Source: Acidobacteriota bacterium
GTDB lineage: Bacteria; Acidobacteriota; UBA6911; RPQK01; JAJDTT01
Direction of reading: 5' to 3'
Length of the DNA: 64,000 nucleotides
NCBI GenBank assembly: GCA_965219855.1
Contig: CBDCOR010000026.1
Coordinates: 134,372-198,371 of the forward strand
The position numbers and the translations under genes were made by a program. Each line of letters opens with the position of its first letter. The first letter of the stretch is position 1. Under the pieces are notes generated by a model that was given only the letters and a program-made list of their open reading frames with translations, searched no databases and had not been told where the DNA came from. This document shows, in pieces, positions 24,460 to 58,941 of the stretch.

Positions 24460-25211
24460 AAGAGCAGATATTGGCGGGCGATGGACAGGACCTCAGGCAT
24501 CTGAAGAGATCATGAAAACGACCTTCGACATCTTCAAAAACTATTCGTACCTGCTTCAGATGCAGAGGTAGTTGCTGTGAATGCTGCCCTATCCCATGCC
24601 AATGTTGCTTTCGAAAAGGTAGGGACTGCCCAGGGTTCCCCGTGCAACGCCCTGGTCCGAGGCAGGTCTGTCGGGGGCCACTTCAAAAGCGGCCAGGCGG
24701 GGCCGGGTCAAAAGCGGCCAGTGATTCAGTAGTTATATCCTCCGGTTCGAGTCATTTCAATCCCTTGTGAAGCCCTCCCCGCGAAGCGGGGGGAGGAGGC
24801 TTTGTTGTGTGTTCAGCCGTAGAAGCGGTGGGAACTGTGGGAAACTCCGTCCGGAGGAGTTTTCCAAGCGCTGTGGGAACGGTGGAAAAACTCGCCTCCT
24901 GGAGTCGTCTTCGCGAGGCAGCCGTTTTCCCACGGTTTCCATAGCGCGGCAGTTTCCACGGCTTTCCGGGGGTGTTGGGGGAAACTCGAGAAGCCTGGCT
25001 TCCATGGTCTCTGCTTGGTTTCAACGACACGGCTTCTTCCTGGCTTCCTTTTTTCAAAAAACATTCGCTCAGAGGCCCCTCAAGCAATGAGCTCTGCCCC
25101 ACCCTGTCCTGACCCCTCCCTCGGAGCGGGCAATCTACGAAGCCTGGGGCTGAGTCCCAGGGTCTGCGAGTAGGGGACAAGCCCGCACTCACAGCACTCG
25201 CCTCGCAGGTG

Positions 25212-25985
25212 TCATTTCTCTTTCCCTCGCTTCGGGGTGGATTTCTCTCGTTGCTGTCGCTCGTAGAGGCGATAGCTCTTGCCCCGAATGAAGGTGACTT
25301 CCGAAGTGTGCAGGAAGCGGTCCAGCAGCGCCGAGGTGGCCGCCGTATCTCCTCCCAGCATCGCGCCCCAGTCCTCCAGGGGTCGATTCGAACTGAGGAT
25401 CGTCGAGGTCTTCTGGTATCGGCGGTGCAGGATCTCCAACAGATCTTCTGCCGCCGACTCCGGCACTCTGCGGAGTCCCAGATCCTCGAGGATCAGCAGC
25501 GGGATCCGGGTCATCTCCGTAATGTAAGATCGGCGTCTGCCGGTGGCCGTGGCTTCGGCGATGTCTTCCAGCAGATCGAAAGCCGACTTGTACTGCACCC
25601 GGTGACCGGCTTCGACCGCCTTGATCCCGACGGTGATGATCAGATGGCTCTTGCCGACTCCGGTCTGACCGATGACCAACCAGCCGCGGCGCTGTTGGAT
25701 GAATCGGCCGGTAGCCAGATCGAAGATCTGCTGCCGGTTGATGGAGGGGTTAAAGGAGAAGTTAAAGTCCTCCAAGTGCTTTTGTTCCGGAAACTGGGCC
25801 TGGCGCAAACGTCGCTCCAACAGCCGGTCCCGACGGCGGGTCAGCTCGTCATCAATCAGCAGCTCAAAGAACTCCTGATGGCTGAGCCTTCCCTGGACGG
25901 CTTGTTGCAGGCGAACGTCAAAGACCTGAGCCAGGCCCGAGAGCCGGAGGTGACGAAGTTTTCGTTCCAGTTCTGATGAGATCAT
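25212..25985 (-). CDS. istB: IS21-family helper ATPase IstB
   Basis: IGQTGVGKSHL Walker A, 257 aa; overlaps istA by 4 nt. Confidence 0.85.
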   Translation of the reverse strand: MISSELERKLRHLRLSGLAQVFDVRLQQAVQGRLSHQEFFELLIDDELTRRRDRLLERRLRQAQFPEQKHLEDFNFSFNPSINRQQIFDLATGRFIQQRRGWLVIGQTGVGKSHLIITVGIKAVEAGHRVQYKSAFDLLEDIAEATATGRRRSYITEMTRIPLLILEDLGLRRVPESAAEDLLEILHRRYQKTSTILSSNRPLEDWGAMLGGDTAATSALLDRFLHTSEVTFIRGKSYRLYERQQREKSTPKRGKEK

Positions 25986-27478
25986 TCTGGTTCTCCTGTG
26001 GGATCGGTGATCTGGTACTCGGACAGCGGTCGGATCAACTCGTGCTCGGAGGTAAACAAAGAGCGCTGCGGCACGTCCAGTCGCTTACACAAAGCCACCA
26101 GAGTCCGGTAGCGGAAGGCGTCATGTGCGAGCGCCTTGCCGCAGGCTTCGTCGACGACCGAAGCGCGGTAGCGGCGGGTCAGCGAGATCATGCCCTGCAC
26201 GAGTCGGTAGGCGAGCATGTCTCGGACCTCCAGAGCTCGCTCGGCCCAGCGGTGCGCCTCTGGACCCACGGCTCGGGCTTGCTTCAGCAGATGATGCTCG
26301 GTTCGATAGTGCGCGTAGCGTTTGCGTTCCGGAAGATGGCTCGTTTCGGTTCGGAATCTCCCCGGCGGGTGCTTCGGATGCAGGGCCACCTGTTGCTCAC
26401 GAAAGAAGACGCGGACGATACGATCATCCCAGTGCACGGCGACTTCACAACCGAGCAGATGATTGGGCACCGAGTAGAACGCTCGGTCGACTTCGATGTG
26501 GCCATCGGTGGAGACCGTTCGACGGCCCACGCGGAAGAAACTGAAGCGGGAATCCGGAAGCGGTCGGAGATGCTTCTGTTCTTCGACAAAGCGGGGCCAG
26601 ACCTGCTGCTTGGTGGTGCCGTGGATGCGCTGGCGGGCGATTCGCTCGTTCCAACTCTGCAGATGCTCATTCTGCGCATCCAGGCTCTCGAAGCGGCGAG
26701 CTTTGAGCGCGCTGGAGTCGGTATATCCGATGCTTCTTTCGACTTTTCCGTTCTCGTTCGGAGCGCCCGGATGGATGGGCAGCACGGCGAAGCCGTAGTG
26801 GCGAGCGAGCGCACTGAAGACGGCATTGACCTCGGGGTCCACCAAGCAAGCCCGGGTGATCCCGGCCTTGAGGTTATCGAGGCGAACCACCTCCACGCCG
26901 CCTCCAAAAGCGTGAAAAGCCTCCTCGACACAGCGGATGAACGTCTTCAGTTCCTGCCGCCAGACGACTTCCTCATAGGAGTGGCGCGAGTGGCAGAGGA
27001 CGGCCTTGAACAGATGAGGACGGCGGTAACGACCCGATTCGGTCCGAGTCAGGGCTCCTTTGCCGAAGTCGATCTGCAGGTCCCGACCGGGGGGAGTTTC
27101 CACCCGAGCAAACACGCGAGGACTCTCCGCCTTGAGCTTTCCACAGAAGCGCTTGACGGAGTTGTAGGCTCCCCCGAATCCCTGCTCGAAGACCAGGTCC
27201 TGCCAGATCCGCTTGGCCTGCAATCCCTGCTGGAGTTTCTTTTCAATCTGCTCCCGAAAGGGCTCACAGAAGCTGCGCAGACCCGGGGGCCGCTTTGGCC
27301 GCTTTTGCTCCTCCGAGCCGGGGGCCGCTTTGGCCGGTTTTGAATCTCGGGAGGGATCATAGCGGGCAATCCTCTCTCGTCGGACTCCCACCTCTCGCTC
27401 GATCCGACGATACGACCAGCCCAGCTTCAGGAGCGCCAAAACCGTTTGCTTCTTTTCCATTTTCAATGTATTGGCCAT
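25982..27478 (-). CDS. istA: IS21-family transposase IstA (intact, 498 aa)
   Basis: N-terminal HTH (TVLALLKLGWSYRRIEREVGV) plus a DDE integrase core. The copy-B version is the same protein with an internal deletion. Confidence 0.85.
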   Translation of the reverse strand: MANTLKMEKKQTVLALLKLGWSYRRIEREVGVRRERIARYDPSRDSKPAKAAPGSEEQKRPKRPPGLRSFCEPFREQIEKKLQQGLQAKRIWQDLVFEQGFGGAYNSVKRFCGKLKAESPRVFARVETPPGRDLQIDFGKGALTRTESGRYRRPHLFKAVLCHSRHSYEEVVWRQELKTFIRCVEEAFHAFGGGVEVVRLDNLKAGITRACLVDPEVNAVFSALARHYGFAVLPIHPGAPNENGKVERSIGYTDSSALKARRFESLDAQNEHLQSWNERIARQRIHGTTKQQVWPRFVEEQKHLRPLPDSRFSFFRVGRRTVSTDGHIEVDRAFYSVPNHLLGCEVAVHWDDRIVRVFFREQQVALHPKHPPGRFRTETSHLPERKRYAHYRTEHHLLKQARAVGPEAHRWAERALEVRDMLAYRLVQGMISLTRRYRASVVDEACGKALAHDAFRYRTLVALCKRLDVPQRSLFTSEHELIRPLSEYQITDPTGEPE

Positions 27479-27574
27479 CGGCGCATCCTACGCCGGATGC
27501 GGCCCTCAATGGCTCTTGAAAATGGCCGGTTTTGAAGTGGCCCTCACTGGCCGCTTTTGGGTGGCCCCTGACAG

Positions 27575-43766: not shown

Positions 43767-43963
43767 ATGGGTCCTCTCGACTATCCCCTCCCCGATACCT
43801 GTTCTCTTTTCTCTATAACGGAATAGATGCATATCAAGTGCCAAAGTCGGCAAACAAAGTGCGTATTCCGGTGAAACCGGCCACCGAATCCGGAGCAAAC
43901 CGGCCGGGTCGGAGCGAAGCGACGCCGGAGGTTGATAATCATCTCCGAAGTGGCCGGTTTGAG

Positions 43964-44719
43964 TCAATCCACAGGAGTCTCTTGGGTTGAGAACACATCA
44001 TCTCGTCTCTCCTTTCCTGAGTGAGTTGCTGAGGCAAAGCTTGCTTCAGCAGAGTGTTGTTTCCATTGTTGCCTCAGAGTCTTCAGGCGACTCCTGAGAT
44101 AATCCCAGTATTGATCGGAGACAGGTTGTTGTCTCACTTCCTGGATTAGAGGTTCGAAGTAGCTCAGGGAAGTGATCGGTCCACCGGTGTGGCCGTTGAG
44201 CCAGGCGACGTGCTTGCGGGCGCAGCCGAGAAGCAGGGTCTGCTCGATCTGCCGCAAGGACAGGCCCTGGCGGTAGAGGCGAGCGGCCAGCTGCCGATCG
44301 GCCGGGGAGAAGGAGCACTGAACGCCAGGGGCATCGAGCAGCAGACAGGCCACCTGATCGAGGTATTGGGATTCGGCCGCTTCGGGCTCCTGGACGAGGG
44401 ATCTTTGGTAGGGCCAGAAGGCCTAGCTGATCTGGATGTGAGTGCGCTCGTGTTGATTGCGAGCGAGGCTGAGCTGAACTAGACCTCGGGACTGGAGTTC
44501 TCCCAGGTAGGTGAACAGGGAGCGGCGAGATTTGCGCAAGGCCGGAGCCAACTGGGTAGGCGAGACGGTCAGTTCGCCGGTGCAGCGATCCGCTTTCAGG
44601 CACAGATAGACAAAGAGTTTGAAGGCGCCGTCGCTGACGCTCTCCATCGCCTGTAGCAACGGAGCACCGGCGGCGGCGAACCAGCCACCTTGGACTTTCA
44701 ACTGCGGTGTTGGACTCAT
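43964..44719 (-). pseudogene. Passenger ORF inside the second IS21 element: winged-helix-like protein interrupted by one in-frame TAG (98 aa + stop + 22 codons + 129 aa)
   Basis: ORFs 44423-44719 and 43964-44353 are in the same phase, separated by a single TAG at 44420-44422. The N-terminal part FKLFVYLCLKADRCTGELTVSPTQLAPALRKSRRSLFTYLGELQSRGLV looks like a winged-helix DNA-binding domain. Confidence 0.45.
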
Positions 44720-45471
44720 GATTCGTCCTTTGCTTTGGTGGGAGGATGACGATGCCGGCGCATGGAAGCCCCTTCGAGCTCAATGCGGTAGGCATTATGG
44801 ACCAGACGATCCAGGATGGAATCAGCGGTGGTCGGATCTCCGATCTGCTCATGCCAATGGGCGACGGGAAGCTGGGAGGTCAGGATCGTGGATCGACTGT
44901 CGTAGCGATCCTCGCAGATCTCGTAGAAGTCCCGTCGCTCGCTCTCGGCCAAGGGATTCATGGCCCAGTCATCGACGATCAGCACGTCGGTGCGGGCGAT
45001 CTTACGCAGGAGCTTGTCGAGCGAGCCGTCGGCTCGAGCCAAAGCCAGATCGCGAAAGAGTCGAGCGGCACGAGTGTACAGAGCCGTCCACCCGTCGCGA
45101 GCGGCCTTCTGAGCAAAGGCACAGGCCAAGAAGGTTTTCCCGACTCCACAGGGACCGATGATCAGGAGATTGTGGTGGGTCTGGATCCAACGGCAGGTGG
45201 CGAGGCTGGCAATCAGCGAGCGATCCAGCCCCCGAGGTCGGCGATAGTTGACATCTTCCAGACAGGCCGAGAGCTTCAATCGGGCATTCTTCAGACGACG
45301 CTCCAAGGCCCGATTCTCTCGCCAGGTCCACTGCCGATCCACCAACAGGGCAAAGCGTTCTTCAAAGCTCAGTTGGGCCATCTCCGGGTCGGAGAGTTGC
45401 TCGGTGAAGGCCTCAGCCATGGCCCTGAGCCGCATGGCGTGAAGTTTTTCGACGGTGGGATTAACCAACAT
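44716..45471 (-). CDS. istB: IS21-family IstB helper ATPase (second element)
   Basis: IIGPCGVGKTFLACAFA is a Walker A motif; 251 aa. Confidence 0.8.
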   Translation of the reverse strand: MLVNPTVEKLHAMRLRAMAEAFTEQLSDPEMAQLSFEERFALLVDRQWTWRENRALERRLKNARLKLSACLEDVNYRRPRGLDRSLIASLATCRWIQTHHNLLIIGPCGVGKTFLACAFAQKAARDGWTALYTRAARLFRDLALARADGSLDKLLRKIARTDVLIVDDWAMNPLAESERRDFYEICEDRYDSRSTILTSQLPVAHWHEQIGDPTTADSILDRLVHNAYRIELEGASMRRHRHPPTKAKDES

Positions 45472-47032
45472 GAGAGGCTCCTTTCTCGCCTTCGAAGTAC
45501 TCGGCCCCTCGCACGTTGGCGTGCTCGATCGGAGGACGTTCCGGCAACGGTTGCGGTTCCGCTTGACGGTCCAGACCGTTCTTCAACATGGACTGGATAC
45601 TCTTGTAGGAGCAGGCCTGAAGTCGCAGGGCCCGACGGCAAGCCTGCTCCAAACGGTCTTCCCCAAAGCTGGAGCCCAGGCGCAGGATACCCAAGCAGGA
45701 GCGATAGCTTTGCTCGGGATAGCGACGGGATTGGAGGATCTTCTCGACCACCGATGCGGTATGGGGCCCGACTTTCTGAGCCCAGTGGATCAGACGCGAG
45801 GGTGACCACTCCAGATAGCGGCGATGGCATTCGGGCCGGTGCTCGTCCAAGGTCGTGGCCTTGCCCGGCTGATAGGAGCGACGGTGAGAGGTCACGCGGC
45901 GACCTTGATGGAAGATCTCCACGGTGGTGACGGTGGTGCGCAGCTCGACCTTCTGACCCACCAGGACATAAGGGACGCTGTAGTAGTGGCGGTCGAACTC
46001 GATGTGGTAATCGATGTTGACGCGGGCCTTCTTCCACTGGGCGAAGACGTAGCGTTGGGCCGGCAGGGGCCCCAGAGCCGGACGATCCAGGTCCTGGAAG
46101 CGCTGGCGGCGGTTGCCGGGGAGCTTGTGAAAGTTTCGAGTGTTGAGACGCTCCAGCAGCTCGGCAATGGCTTCGTTGAGCTCTCCCAGGGAAAAGAAGG
46201 TCCGGTGACGCAAGGCGGCCAAGATCCAGCGCTCGACGACTAACACACCCGACTCCGCCTTCGCTTTATCTCGAGGACGGCGCACTCGAGCCGGGATCAC
46301 CGCGACGCCGTAGTGCGAGGCCCAATCCGAATAGCTCGCATTGAGATCCGGTTCATAGCGACAGGGGCGATGGACCGCATCTTTGGTGTTGTCTGGAACC
46401 ACGACGCAGGGGCAACCCCCCAGGAACTCCAGAGCCCGAGTGTGGGCCGCGAGCCACGAGGGTAAGTCCTGCCTTAGGGAGGCTTCCGCATAGGTATAGT
46501 TGCTTGCCCCCAGCCCGGCCACGAAGATCGAGGCCTCTTGGGTTTCCCCCGTATGGCGATCCACGATCGGGACCGTGTCGCCGGCATAGTCCACGAAGAG
46601 CTTCTCGCCGGCCCGGTGTTCCTGCCGCAGCACCAGATCCAGCTTGCCCCGCCAGCGATGGTACAGATCGCAGAACTGACTGTACTGATAGCCCTCCGGA
46701 TACGCCTGCTTGTACTCATCCCAGAGCAGCATCAAGGTCACATGTTTGTGTCGGCAGCGCTCCTCATGGACGGTGGCGAAGTCGGGGAGGGGACGTTGCT
46801 CCGGGGGAGATTTACCCGTGGGAGGAAACACCCGGTTCTGAATCGCCCGGTCATCCCACCCCTCAGGGAGTGGCCAACTCAGACCGGCTCCTTGGGCCCG
46901 GCGCACATACTCTGCCACGGTGCTGCGCGCGAGGGCACAGCTACGGGCGATCTGCCGATCCGAAAGATGAAGCTGAAACTTCAGGCGTAGGACATTTTTG
47001 ATTTTGCGCATGGACTTCCTTTGGTTCGGCAC
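45461..47032 (-). CDS. istA: IS21-family IstA transposase (second element, 523 aa)
   Basis: N-terminal HTH plus a DDE core; only distantly related to the 498-aa IstA of copies A/B. Confidence 0.8.
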   Translation of the reverse strand: MPNQRKSMRKIKNVLRLKFQLHLSDRQIARSCALARSTVAEYVRRAQGAGLSWPLPEGWDDRAIQNRVFPPTGKSPPEQRPLPDFATVHEERCRHKHVTLMLLWDEYKQAYPEGYQYSQFCDLYHRWRGKLDLVLRQEHRAGEKLFVDYAGDTVPIVDRHTGETQEASIFVAGLGASNYTYAEASLRQDLPSWLAAHTRALEFLGGCPCVVVPDNTKDAVHRPCRYEPDLNASYSDWASHYGVAVIPARVRRPRDKAKAESGVLVVERWILAALRHRTFFSLGELNEAIAELLERLNTRNFHKLPGNRRQRFQDLDRPALGPLPAQRYVFAQWKKARVNIDYHIEFDRHYYSVPYVLVGQKVELRTTVTTVEIFHQGRRVTSHRRSYQPGKATTLDEHRPECHRRYLEWSPSRLIHWAQKVGPHTASVVEKILQSRRYPEQSYRSCLGILRLGSSFGEDRLEQACRRALRLQACSYKSIQSMLKNGLDRQAEPQPLPERPPIEHANVRGAEYFEGEKGASHVG

Positions 47033-47533
47033 GATCGCTCCTCCGAAAAGGAGTCATGGTACCGAAGGAGTCCAACGTCGCTTCCGTCCGCTCTGGAAAC
47101 CGATTCCGGGAAACCGGCCGCCTTTCCGGGAAACCGGCCACCCTTCCGGGAAATCGGCCACCCTTCCGGAAACCCCGTTTCTAGTGGCCGGTTTCCCGCC
47201 GGATTGGGTGGCCGGTTTGCTCCGGAATCAGTGGCCGGTTTGCTCCGGAATCAGTGGCCGGTTTGCTCTGGAATCACCGGCCGGTTTCGTCCGGAATACG
47301 CAAACAAAGTGGAAGGAATCCGAAATCCTGGCTCCAGTCGATCTCTGCTGTTTCGTTTTCCTCTCTCGCGAGGGGTTAAGGCGTCAGGTGAGCCGCCGGC
47401 CCGTGGTACCATTGAAGCAGGTCGGCGGCCGGAGATCTTCCAATGTGAGGACCTAGGAAGAGCGGTCTGCCCGGCTTCCCTTTTGGAATTGGTTGAAGAA
47501 GAATACCCTAGTAGCGATCGCGGTTTCTGACAG

Positions 47534-50686: not shown

Positions 50687-51038
50687 CGGAGTAACTCCTT
50701 TCGTCGTCCCTTTGGCGTGACTGGCAAGCGTGCTGCCGAAAGAAGAATCATACCAGGTAGAAGTGCTGCCTGTAACCGTATCTCCAAGCTGGTGGAAAAG
50801 GCAGATCTGCCCTCGAAATCGAGTCGCTTTCAGTGCCGAAAAAAGAGGTACTACAATCCTGTCGGATGAGGCAAGTTTCCTGCGGCTCTTCGGCTTGACC
50901 TGGGTCGGGAAAAAATGCTAGAAAGTAGCGTTTCCAAGCTAAGTGTCAGGGGCCACCCAAAAGCGGCCAGTGAGGGCCACTTCAAAACCGGCCATTTTCA
51001 AGAGCCATTGAGGGCCGCATCCGGCGTAGGATGCGCCG

Positions 51039-52428
51039 ATGGCCAATACATTGAAAATGGAAAAGAAGCAAACGGTTTTGGCGCTCCTGAAGCTGGGCTG
51101 GTCGTATCGTCGGATCGAGCGAGAGGTGGGAGTCCGACGAGAGACGATTGCCCGCTATGATCCCTCCCGAGATTCAAAACCGGCCAAAGTGGCCCCCGGC
51201 TCGGAGGAGCAAAAGCGGCCAAAGCGGCCCCCGGGTCTGCGCAGCTTCTGTGAGCCCTTTCGGGAGCAGATTGAAAAGAAACTCCAGCAGGGATTGCAGG
51301 CCAAGCGGATCTGGCAGGACCTGGTCTTCGAGCAGGGATTCGGGGGAGCCTACAACTCCGTCAAGCGCTTCTGTGGAAAGCTCAAGGCGGAGAGTCCTCG
51401 CGTGTTTGCTCGGGTGGAAACTCCCCCCGGTCGGGACCTGCAGATCGACTTCGGCAAAGGAGCCCTGACTCGGACCGAATCGGGTCGTTACCGCCGTCCT
51501 CATCTGAGGCGGCGTGGAGGTGGTTCGCCTCGATAACCTCAAGGCCGGGATCACCCGGGCTTGCTTGGTGGACCCCGAGGTCAATGCCGTCTTCAGTGCG
51601 CTCGCTCGCCACTACGGCTTCGCCGTGCTGCCCATCCATCCGGGCGCTCCGAACGAGAACGGAAAAGTCGAAAGAAGCATCGGATATACCGACTCCAGCG
51701 CGCTCAAAGCTCGCCGCTTCGAGAGCCTGGATGCGCAGAATGAGCATCTGCAGAGTTGGAACGAGCGAATCGCCCGCCAGCGCATCCACGGCACCACCAA
51801 GCAGCAGGTCTGGCCCCGCTTTGTCGAAGAACAGAAGCATCTCCGACCGCTTCCGGATTCCCGCTTCAGTTTCTTCCGCGTGGGCCGTCGAACGGTCTCC
51901 ACCGATGGCCACATCGAAGTCGACCGAGCGTTCTACTCGGTGCCCAATCATCTGCTCGGTTGTGAAGTCGCCGTGCACTGGGATGATCGTATCGTCCGCG
52001 TCTTCTTTCGTGAGCAACAGGTGGCCCTGCATCCGAAGCACCCGCCGGGGAGATTCCGAACCGAAACGAGCCATCTTCCGGAACGCAAACGCTACGCGCA
52101 CTATCGAACCGAGCATCATCTGCTGAAGCAAGCCCGAGCCGTGGGTCCAGAGGCGCACCGCTGGGCCGAGCGAGCTCTGGAGGTCCGAGACATGCTCGCC
52201 TACCGACTCGTGCAGGGCATGATCTCGCTGACCCGCCGCTACCGCGCTTCGGTCGTCGACGAAGCCTGCGGCAAGGCGCTCGCACATGACGCCTTCCGCT
52301 ACCGGACTCTGGTGGCTTTGTGTAAGCGACTGGACGTGCCGCAGCGCTCTTTGTTTACCTCCGAGCACGAGTTGATCCGACCGCTGTCCGAGTACCAGAT
52401 CACCGATCCCACAGGAGAACCAGAATGA
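51039..52428 (+). pseudogene. istA: istA with ~109-bp internal deletion and frameshift (two ORFs 51039-51536 and 51514-52428)
   Basis: Compared to copy A, the segment FKAVLCHSRHSYEEVVWRQELKTFIRCVEEAFHAFGGG is missing and the frame changes after ...RRPHL. Confidence 0.85.
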
Positions 52429-53198
52429 TCTCATCAGAACTGGAACAAAAACTTCGTCACCTCCGGCTCTCGGGCCTGGCTCAGGTCTTTGACGTTCGCC
52501 TGCAACAAGCCGTCCAGGGAAGGCTCAGCCATCAGGAGTTCTTTGAGCTGCTGATTGATGACGAGCTGACCCGCCGTCGGGACCGGCTGTTGGAGCGACG
52601 TTTGCGCCAGGCCCAGTTTCCGGAACAAAAGCACTTGGAGGACTTTAACTTCTCCTTTAACCCCTCCATCAACCGGCAGCAGATCTTCGATCTGGCTACC
52701 GGCCGATTCATCCAACAGCGCCGCGGCTGGTTGGTCATCGGTCAGACCGGAGTCGGCAAGAGCCATCTGATCATCACCGTCGGGATCAAGGCGGTCGAAG
52801 CCGGTCACCGGGTGCAGTACAAGTCGGCTTTCGATCTGCTGGAAGACATCGCCGAAGCCACGGCCACCGGCAGACGCCGATCTTACATTACGGAGATGAC
52901 CCGGATCCCGCTGCTGATCCTCGAGGATCTGGGACTCCGCAGAGTGCCGGAGTCGGCGGCAGAAGATCTGTTGGAGATCCTGCACCGCCGATACCAGAAG
53001 ACCTCGACGATCCTCAGTTCGAATCGACCCCTGGAGGACTGGGGCGCGATGCTGGGAGGAGATACGGCGGCCACCTCGGCGCTGCTGGACCGCTTCCTGC
53101 ACACTTCGGAAGTCACCTTCATTCGGGGCAAGAGCTATCGCCTCTACGAGCGACAGCAACGAGAGAAATCCACCCCGAAGCGAGGGAAAGAGAAATGA
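52425..53198 (+). CDS. istB: IS21-family IstB (copy B)
   Basis: Identical to the copy A IstB except for a single Q/R substitution near the N-terminus (MISSELEQKLR... vs MISSELERKLR...). Confidence 0.85.
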   Translation: MISSELEQKLRHLRLSGLAQVFDVRLQQAVQGRLSHQEFFELLIDDELTRRRDRLLERRLRQAQFPEQKHLEDFNFSFNPSINRQQIFDLATGRFIQQRRGWLVIGQTGVGKSHLIITVGIKAVEAGHRVQYKSAFDLLEDIAEATATGRRRSYITEMTRIPLLILEDLGLRRVPESAAEDLLEILHRRYQKTSTILSSNRPLEDWGAMLGGDTAATSALLDRFLHTSEVTFIRGKSYRLYERQQREKSTPKRGKEK

Positions 53199-53816
53199 CA
53201 CCTGCGAGGCGAGTGCTGTGAGTGCGGGCTTGTCCCCTACTCGCAGACCCTGGGACTCAGCCCCAGGCTTCGTAGATTGCCCGCTCCGAGGGAGGGGTCA
53301 GGACAGGGTGGGGCAGAGCTCATTGCTTGAGGGGCCTCTGAGCGAATGTTTTTTGAAAAAAGGAAGCCAGGAAGAAGCCGTGTCGTTGAAACCAAGCAGA
53401 GACCATGGAAGCCAGGCTTCTCGAGTTTCCCCCAACACCCCCGGAAAGCCGTGGAAACTGCCGCGCTATGGAAACCGTGGGAAAACGGCTGCCTCGCGAA
53501 GACGACTCCAGGAGGCGAGTTTTTCCACCGTTCCCACGGCGCTTGGAAAACTCCTCCGGACGGAGTTTCCCACAGTTCCCACCGCTTCTACGGCTGAACA
53601 CACAACAAAGCCTCCTCCCCCCGCTTCGCGGGGAGGGCTTCACAAGGGATTGAAATGACTCGAACCGGAGGATATAACTACTGAATCACTGGCCGCTTTT
53701 GAAGTGGCCCCCGACACTAAGTACACTGGAACGTATTTACGTTCCAGTGTACTAAGGAGAAATAGAGGTAAGGGTCTCGAAGCATCAAGCTCAGGATAGA
53801 ACTCGAGGATAGTGGA

Positions 53817-58867: not shown

Positions 58868-58941
58868 TGGGGGATGGTGTAATGGCAACACGCGTGGCTC
58901 TGGACCACATGATCGGGGTTCGACTCCCTGTCCCCCAGCCA
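58868..58941 (+). tRNA. tRNA-Gln (anticodon CUG)
   Basis: Hand fold: 7-bp acceptor TGGGGGA/TCCCCCA, D arm GTGT-AATGGCA-ACAC, anticodon stem with loop CTCTGGA, T arm CGGGG-TTCGACT-CCCTG, discriminator G plus CCA. The 3' half is near-identical to E. coli tRNA-Gln. Confidence 0.75.

Follow-up and report, generated by a model that had tools for sequence, protein, structure and literature searches.

A three-gene IS21-family element from Acidobacteriota with a conserved winged-helix gene downstream of istB

Insertion sequences (ISs) of the IS21 family, which usually measure ~1.75-2.6 kb, are a structural model for the control of a DDE transposase by an AAA+ ATPase, and the locus described here poses the question of what such a transposon gains from an extra DNA-binding subunit. 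The locus lies in a 64-kb stretch of DNA (hereafter the window) from an Acidobacteriota bacterium (assembly GCA_965219855.1, contig CBDCOR010000026.1, positions 134,372 to 198,371) and consists of an element that carries, in addition to the transposase gene istA and the helper gene istB, a third open reading frame (ORF), named ORF3, that is interrupted by an in-frame amber (TAG) codon. An earlier note on this DNA had reported an oversized IS21-family element and had explained the additional frame as cargo or as a captured regulatory gene. The comparisons presented below show that window positions 43860-47302 hold a copy of a three-gene IS21 element of which ORF3 is an integral part, albeit truncated here by the amber codon, and make it probable that the ORF3 protein assists transposition as a DNA-binding accessory factor.

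Boundaries and family membership of the element

Related loci were collected by scanning the ORF3 alignment over one genome per GTDB species, with 217 loci confirmed and 80 retained, and the boundaries were tested by blastn of the window element with its 300-bp flanks against them. Eight independent copies from other Acidobacteriota genomes define the boundaries: they share the same 12-bp inverted repeat, are set in unrelated flanks and are bordered by 5-7-bp duplications, and the homology reaches the last base of both tips in L001, L003-L007, and L009 and of the ORF3-side end only in L008. Because these copies end at the same bases, ORF3 forms part of the IS and does not belong to its flanks; the opposite possibility, namely that the IS ends near 44716 and that the flanking repeat arose by chance, was checked on the same copies and does not hold. 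The view of an oversized IS21-family element with ~850 additional internal bp is thus borne out by copies that share the TG...CA tips, and the 856 bp that separate the 43860 end from the istB stop agree with the distance originally estimated between the left terminus and istB.

The tips of the element read TG...CA, as is typical of IS21, and are part of a perfect 12-bp terminal inverted repeat (TGCGTATTCCGG/CCGGAATACGCA), which is the longest perfect one at the element ends and whose exact 12-mer occurs, on both strands of the window, at the two ends of the element and at no other site. The combination of tips and inverted repeat places the start of the element at 43860 rather than at 43862; hence, the perfection of the inverted repeats in the earlier note stands, while its limits, 43862-47300, are moved outwards to 43860 and 47302. 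Similarly, the 11-bp direct repeat noticed at the flanks resolves into a 7-bp AACAAAG target duplication extended by a chance match of the flank to the TG/CA tips, and duplications of 5-7 bp border the 8 + 33 other copies in which they were read. The iterated repeats of the IstA-binding type at both ends, also claimed by the note, are well supported: the window contains seven GTGGCCGGTTTG-type matches against 0.41 expected, all seven within the two ends of the element. The 23-bp subterminal array is presumed to contain the IstA binding sites, and the 104 bp from the ORF3 stop to the IS tip are occupied by the subterminal repeats of that side. When the flanks were joined in silico without the element, only short ORFs spanned the junction, so the insertion site is apparently intergenic.

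Table 1. Coordinates of the features of the three-gene element in the window.
Feature	Positions	Strand	Description and evidence
Complete IS21-family element	43860..47302	-	3,443 bp; order istA-istB-ORF3; blastn against other copies and 12-bp inverted repeat
Target-site duplication, left copy	43853..43859		AACAAAG, read from sequence
IRR, terminal inverted repeat at the ORF3-side end	43860..43871		TGCGTATTCCGG
Subterminal repeats, ORF3 side	43873..43961		Cores at 43873-43884 (-), ~43896-43905 (-) and 43950-43961 (+)
ORF3, C-terminal part	43964..44422	-	152 codons and TGA stop, same frame; five-helix domain
ORF3, N-terminal part	44423..44719	-	98 codons, winged-helix domain; ends at TAG 44423-44425
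istB, AAA+ helper ATPase	44716..45471	-	251 amino acids; NF038214 IS21_help_AAA, 7e-78; PF01695, 2e-70
istA, DDE transposase	45461..47032	-	523 amino acids from GTG at 47032; NF033546 transpos_IS21, 6.5e-88; Pfam rve and Mu-transpos_C_2
Three 20-bp repeats, same core inverted, between array and istA start	47104..47175		Repeat search
Subterminal repeat array, istA side	47176..47290		Four to five 23-bp units, core GTGGCCGGTTTG
IRL, terminal inverted repeat at the istA-side end	47291..47302		CCGGAATACGCA
Target-site duplication, right copy	47303..47309		AACAAAG, read from sequence

The presence of istA and istB genes belonging to the element itself, already proposed in the note, is confirmed by the matches to NF033546 and NF038214 listed in Table 1: the istA score exceeds the model cutoff, and istB reaches 261 bits against a cutoff of 200. 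As in IS21, IS5376, and IS408, an IstA DDE transposase is followed by an IstB AAA+ helper and the two genes overlap, the istB start lying within the 3' end of istA. The defining features of IS21 elements that were tested are all found here, namely IstA with IstB directly downstream, the gene order, the TG...CA tips, multiple subterminal repeats at both ends, and a target duplication (5-7 bp in this group) within the 4-8 bp of the family. Conversely, the typical description of an IS21 element, with two ORFs in ~1.75-2.6 kb, does not fit a length of 3,443 bp and three conserved ORFs. This norm of size and ORF number is descriptive and not defining, and the element is classed as a variant inside the IS21 family; ORF3-bearing elements differ from other members in having three genes instead of two, in their length of 3.3-3.45 kb, and in the nature of the third gene, which codes for a winged-helix protein and is coupled to istB. 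Recent structural literature on IS21 describes two proteins (PMC12486865).

For istA, a start at the ATG at 47013, which is preceded by AAGGAAG and yields 516 amino acids, is more likely than the GTG used for Table 1. Directly 5' of the istA start, at 47033-47100, a short hairpin-capable CTCCTCCGAAAAGGAG overlaps the presumed ribosome-binding region, and its counterpart in a more distant lineage (lineage c, see below) is a 16-nt imperfect palindrome over the Shine-Dalgarno sequence (L026 3624-3668); these structures could serve a translational control of istA.

Conservation of ORF3 and the private amber codon

The lineages were assigned by tblastn of the window IstA, IstB, and ORF3 against the 80 loci, and ORF3 was found directly after istA-istB in each of lineages a, b, and c; lineage d (L081-L084) has the same istA-istB-ORF3 layout, which brings the divergent lineages with ORF3 behind istB to at least four. 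The IstA proteins of lineage a are 92-95% identical to that of the window and those of lineage b 55-61% identical, the latter occurring in Acidobacteriota and Planctomycetota bins and on a handful of very small contigs attributed to other taxa, while in lineage c the identity to the window proteins falls to ~31% for IstA, ~36% for IstB, and 39-44% for ORF3. Lineage-c elements have a length of 3,327 or 3,338 bp, depending on the genome, and ~30 and ~20 copies, >99.9% identical to each other, were found in the two genomes concerned; their tips read TGTC...GACA, the target duplications are 5-7 bp long, and ORF3 ends ~31 bp from the tip, within the second terminal repeat. The junction between istB and ORF3 is equally constant. 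In the window the ORF3 ATG at 44719-44717 overlaps the istB TGA (ATGA), and an overlap of this kind, as ATGA, GTGA, or TGATG, is present in 13 of the 13 elements inspected, which represent all lineages, with an AGGAGG-like sequence 6-9 nt upstream of the ORF3 start.

ORF3 is free of internal stops at 75 of the 80 loci, and the ratios of nonsynonymous to synonymous substitution rates (dN/dS, Nei-Gojobori) among lineage-a copies are 0.16-0.32 for ORF3, 0.09-0.16 for istA, and 0.06-0.16 for istB, which indicates that ORF3 is under purifying selection. Since it holds the same position across lineages with IstA proteins only 31% identical, overlaps istB by its start codon, and is under purifying selection, ORF3 is, by all these comparisons, an integral and conserved third gene of the element, and the cargo or captured regulatory gene envisaged by the earlier note gives way to this conclusion. 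A small neighbour-joining tree of IstB, in which the deep nodes are left unresolved, separates the elements that have ORF3 from those that lack it and is compatible with a single clade of ORF3-bearing IS21; lineage-c IstB is 40% identical to that of lineage a and 42% identical to that of an ORF3-less IS21. Moreover, an ORF3 homologue is absent from both copies of another IS21-type element in the window (described in the last section), so the third gene appears to be specific to a clade.

Two observations on individual copies stand apart from these results. In a lineage-a copy (L009 5248-6753), istB and ORF3 form a single frame of 501 codons with no stop between them, which is either a natural fusion or a 1-nt indel error of the long-read assembly. 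Two contigs of 3.5-4 kb (L065, L067) consist almost entirely of a three-gene IS21 and are binned as ‘Thermoplasmatales archaeon’ and ‘Hyphomicrobiaceae’, which likely reflects the mis-binning of a repeat contig rather than the true host range.

In the window copy, the ORF3 frame (43964..44719, minus strand) comprises 252 codons with one internal TAG at 44423-44425, in keeping with the ~250-residue frame with a single interruption described in the note; the second ATG placed after the TAG is, instead, a GTG, ~23 codons further on. The closest protein, P0001 (251 amino acids, 99% identical, from a 500-kb metagenome contig), has a glutamate at the position of the TAG, and none of nine close copies has a TAG there, the codon being GAG in L001, L002, L008, and L009 and GAC in L003-L007. 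Hence, of the two things for which conservation in other copies was to be examined, ORF3 is conserved and the TAG is not. TAG terminates 9 of the 31 window ORFs of at least 300 codons, the sole tRNA gene of the window is a tRNA-Gln(CTG) at 58868-58941, and no suppressor tRNA is found in the 64 kb. Given the GAG or GAC codons of the relatives, the routine use of TAG as a stop, and the lack of a suppressor tRNA in the window, the amber codon is a private GAG-to-TAG nonsense mutation caused by one G-to-T change, that is, an ordinary knockout lesion and not a notable feature of the element. The contrary explanation, in which programmed read-through or a reassigned amber codon allows full-length ORF3 to be made, could appeal to the 152 further codons without a stop and to the 99% identity of the copy to an intact homologue; however, the TAG is unique to the window copy and is not avoided as a terminator, the clean frame beyond it is accounted for by a very recent mutation, and the probability left to amber recoding, which was rejected, is practically negligible. 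The window copy can therefore make IstA and IstB and, of ORF3, at most an isolated winged-helix fragment. Because its istA and istB are undamaged, this copy might still transpose provided that ORF3 is not needed or comes in trans, and for annotation purposes the amber codon of the window ORF3 is a pseudogene lesion.

The ORF3 protein and its likely role in transposition

The ORF3 family is large and lacks a name. A word-indexed search returned 476 homologues at E <= 1e-3, and an exhaustive search returned 1,808 representatives of 50%-identity clusters at the same threshold and 215 at E <= 1e-30; all family members are unnamed or annotated as ‘hypothetical protein’, and no NCBIfam model matches ORF3. 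The winged-helix-like N-terminus recognised in the note is corroborated by Pfam HTH_36 (PF13730), found N-terminally in 51 of 58 members (with a best E of 1.4e-7 and the window's own copy below the cutoff), and by an AlphaFold2 model of P0001 (mean predicted local distance difference test score, pLDDT, 85), in which a winged helix spans residues 13-97 and a five-helix domain residues 112-234. The C-terminal part gives weak Pfam matches to RepB_primase_C and helix-turn-helix families; modelled alone, this domain reaches a pLDDT of 86.8 and a predicted template modelling (pTM) score of 0.73, and it finds no match in the PDB by Foldseek (best E 1.3) nor in a profile search of PDB sequences. Foldseek of the whole model against the PDB retrieves the winged helix only, through MarR, ArsR, and CodY-type domains and a weak DnaD model (9a5c_B, E 4e-3). 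No ORF3 relative was found in IMG/VR viral contigs and no ORF3 match in PLSDB plasmids.

The family is not confined to IS21. Of the 80 loci, 14 lack istA and istB, and in 12-13 of these the ORF3 homologue closes a conserved operon with overlapping start and stop codons, composed in order of a 467-amino-acid and a 793-amino-acid protein (both Phage_integrase, tyrosine recombinases), a 155-amino-acid protein, and the ORF3 homologue; the matches of the recombinases to Phage_integrase and Xer are weak. The same four-gene unit is present in L085-L087 between two DUF932 genes. A neighbour-joining tree of ORF3, which carries no support values, places the recombinase-associated sequences in a single group within the IS21-associated ones. 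A layout of two recombinases and a small protein has been described for Tn554 (TnpA/TnpB/TnpC) and for strand-biased circularizing integrative elements (SE; IntA/Tfp/IntB/Srap), which depend on small auxiliary proteins (PMC10214605); the likeness to the ORF3 operon is one of layout only, and the operon differs from both in having a fourth gene, the ORF3 homologue, after the small protein. More distant family members adjoin integrases, single-stranded DNA-binding protein (SSB) genes, a LexA-like gene, or a small HTH_36 gene.

Two of these settings deserve a separate mention. At L085 1131-6064, the four-gene unit between the two DUF932 genes adjoins SSB and a Mu-type transposase, which suggests an insertion into a conjugative-element-like region. 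At L088 6001-7170, a 389-amino-acid family member (P0161) with a 155-residue N-terminal extension is encoded divergently from a 426-amino-acid Phage_integrase gene; two large genes, for 615 and 733 amino acids, come after the latter.

The explanation favoured here for the IS21 copies is that ORF3 would be a ~250-amino-acid DNA-binding accessory factor of transposition that serves the element rather than the host. The protein would be made at a constant ratio to IstB through translational coupling, as suggested by the overlap of its start with the istB stop and by the Shine-Dalgarno sequence in front of it. Its N-terminal winged helix would most likely act on element DNA or on the DNA of a transposition intermediate, whereas the conserved C-terminal helical domain, together with a short conserved N-terminal peptide (LKxxxGWFAAG), may contact a partner protein. 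Since the same family ends the operon of a chemically unrelated tyrosine-recombinase transposon, the job is probably generic and not specific to DDE chemistry; the candidates are regulation of transposase expression, an architectural function on the DNA of the element, and recruitment of a host factor.

Several observations weigh against this explanation. The proposed function is deduced from position, coupling, and conservation, and a second class of repeats that could act as an ORF3 operator was not seen in lineage-a or lineage-c ends. ORF3 evolves faster than istA and istB, as the dN/dS values show, and nonsense alleles exist in the window, L008, L021, L066, and L068, which implies that ORF3 is not required to keep a resident copy and could be supplied in trans. 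Moreover, the more distant members lie outside recognisable transposons, so the family may originally have had a function other than transposition. Lastly, no description of a three-gene IS21 was found in the literature searched, although a curated ISfinder or TnPedia entry may exist.

Among the other possible explanations, the captured passenger, in which ORF3 is a host-type regulatory gene and the element a transporter IS, has in its favour the size of the element (3,443 bp), the resemblance of the winged helix to MarR, ArsR, and CodY-type regulators in fold, and the existence of family members outside IS elements; it is nevertheless highly improbable, because position and start/stop overlap are the same in lineages with 31%-identical IstA, ORF3 extends into the terminal repeats and leaves no spare DNA, three-gene copies have been amplified to 20-30 per genome, and the relatives with recognisable neighbours are all in a mobile-element context. 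It is also very unlikely that ORF3 selects target sites as a partner of the AAA+ IstB, in the way TniQ/TnsD work with TnsC/TniB. The order istA-istB-ORF3 does parallel that of Tn7 and Tn5053/Tn402 (tnsB/tniA-tnsC/tniB-tnsD/tniQ), where a DDE transposase, an AAA+ regulator, and a third gene for a DNA-binding protein follow each other, and the coupling to the gene of the AAA+ regulator would fit a selector; so would three independent lineage-c insertions (L031, L042, and L061) in the same orientation with left junctions near 3486, within 10 bp of each other. This hot spot lies inside a 401-amino-acid transposase-like gene of another repeated element, and L053 has the same flank as its reverse complement. 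On the other side, ORF3 has no Pfam or NCBIfam match to TniQ and no similarity to TniQ or TnsD in sequence or fold, it occurs also in elements without IstB, and the ORF3-bearing elements display no target-site specificity: at 33 insertion sites, apart from the one hot spot, the flanks share no sequence, the duplications differ, and the local GC content equals the background. A TniQ-like sequence-specific selector is thus disfavoured for want of a domain match and of a common target, and the parallel with Tn7/Tn402 is taken as an analogy of layout only.

A role in recruiting replication proteins, in which a DnaD-like or replisome-organizer-like ORF3 would deliver the replication or repair machinery of the host to the product of strand transfer or to a circular intermediate, is unlikely too, even if the N-terminal domain speaks for it. 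HTH_36 is typical of replication initiators, IstB belongs to the DnaC/DnaI loader clade, and two phage protein families are recovered with the N-terminal region, PHROG_186 ‘DnaD-like helicase loader’ at E 1.4e-4 and phrog_270 ‘replication initiation protein’ at E 0.01; moreover, Foldseek against BFVD gives matches over the full length to phage proteins annotated as ‘replication initiator’ or ‘replisome organizer’ (E between 6e-6 and 1e-3), to be added to the weak PDB match to DnaD. The template modelling scores of these matches are, however, as low as 0.2-0.3, and the C-terminal domain is not detectably DnaD-like: its model matches nothing in the PDB, in which solved DnaD C-terminal domains are included, and the PDB profile search and the search for viral relatives in IMG/VR gave nothing. 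In addition, the site-specific recombination carried out by tyrosine recombinases requires no replication. A DnaD-like C-terminal domain (DDBH2) was accordingly discarded after no Pfam, PDB-sequence, or Foldseek match was obtained, and the support for a DnaD-like role appears confined to the N-terminal domain.

Returning to ORF3 as an accessory factor of transposition, a broader proposal can be advanced tentatively: in a widespread clade of IS21, ORF3 may be a third part of the transposition apparatus that has so far gone unrecognised, and a portable winged-helix module, shared with Tn554-like tyrosine-recombinase transposons, that controls or assists transposition through a new helical domain. 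If this were true, IS21 would have natural three-component relatives. The present finding points to a clade whose members regularly bring along a third protein, translated in coupling with istB, in every case; this clade has reached dozens of copies in soil Acidobacteriota. That tyrosine-recombinase transposons have members of the same family suggests an accessory module able to pass between transposition systems that are not related. In practical terms, IS21 elements of 3.3-3.5 kb are not to be divided by annotation into an IS and a ‘hypothetical protein’.

The other IS21-type element of the window

The window also contains two ~2.9-kb copies of another IS21-type element, at 24669-27573 and 50944-53716, which are 99.6-99.8% identical and inverted with respect to each other. 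The first has istA at 25982..27478 and istB at 25212..25985, both on the minus strand, and the second carries a 106-bp internal deletion in istA. Together they bracket ~23 kb that include the three-gene element, and they could form a composite transposon or act as the substrate of an inversion. Between the istB stop and the end of the first copy, ~540 bp (24669-25211) without a convincing ORF are full of GTGGGAAAC/GTTTCCCAC-like repeats, a tail that is unusually long for an IS21 end.

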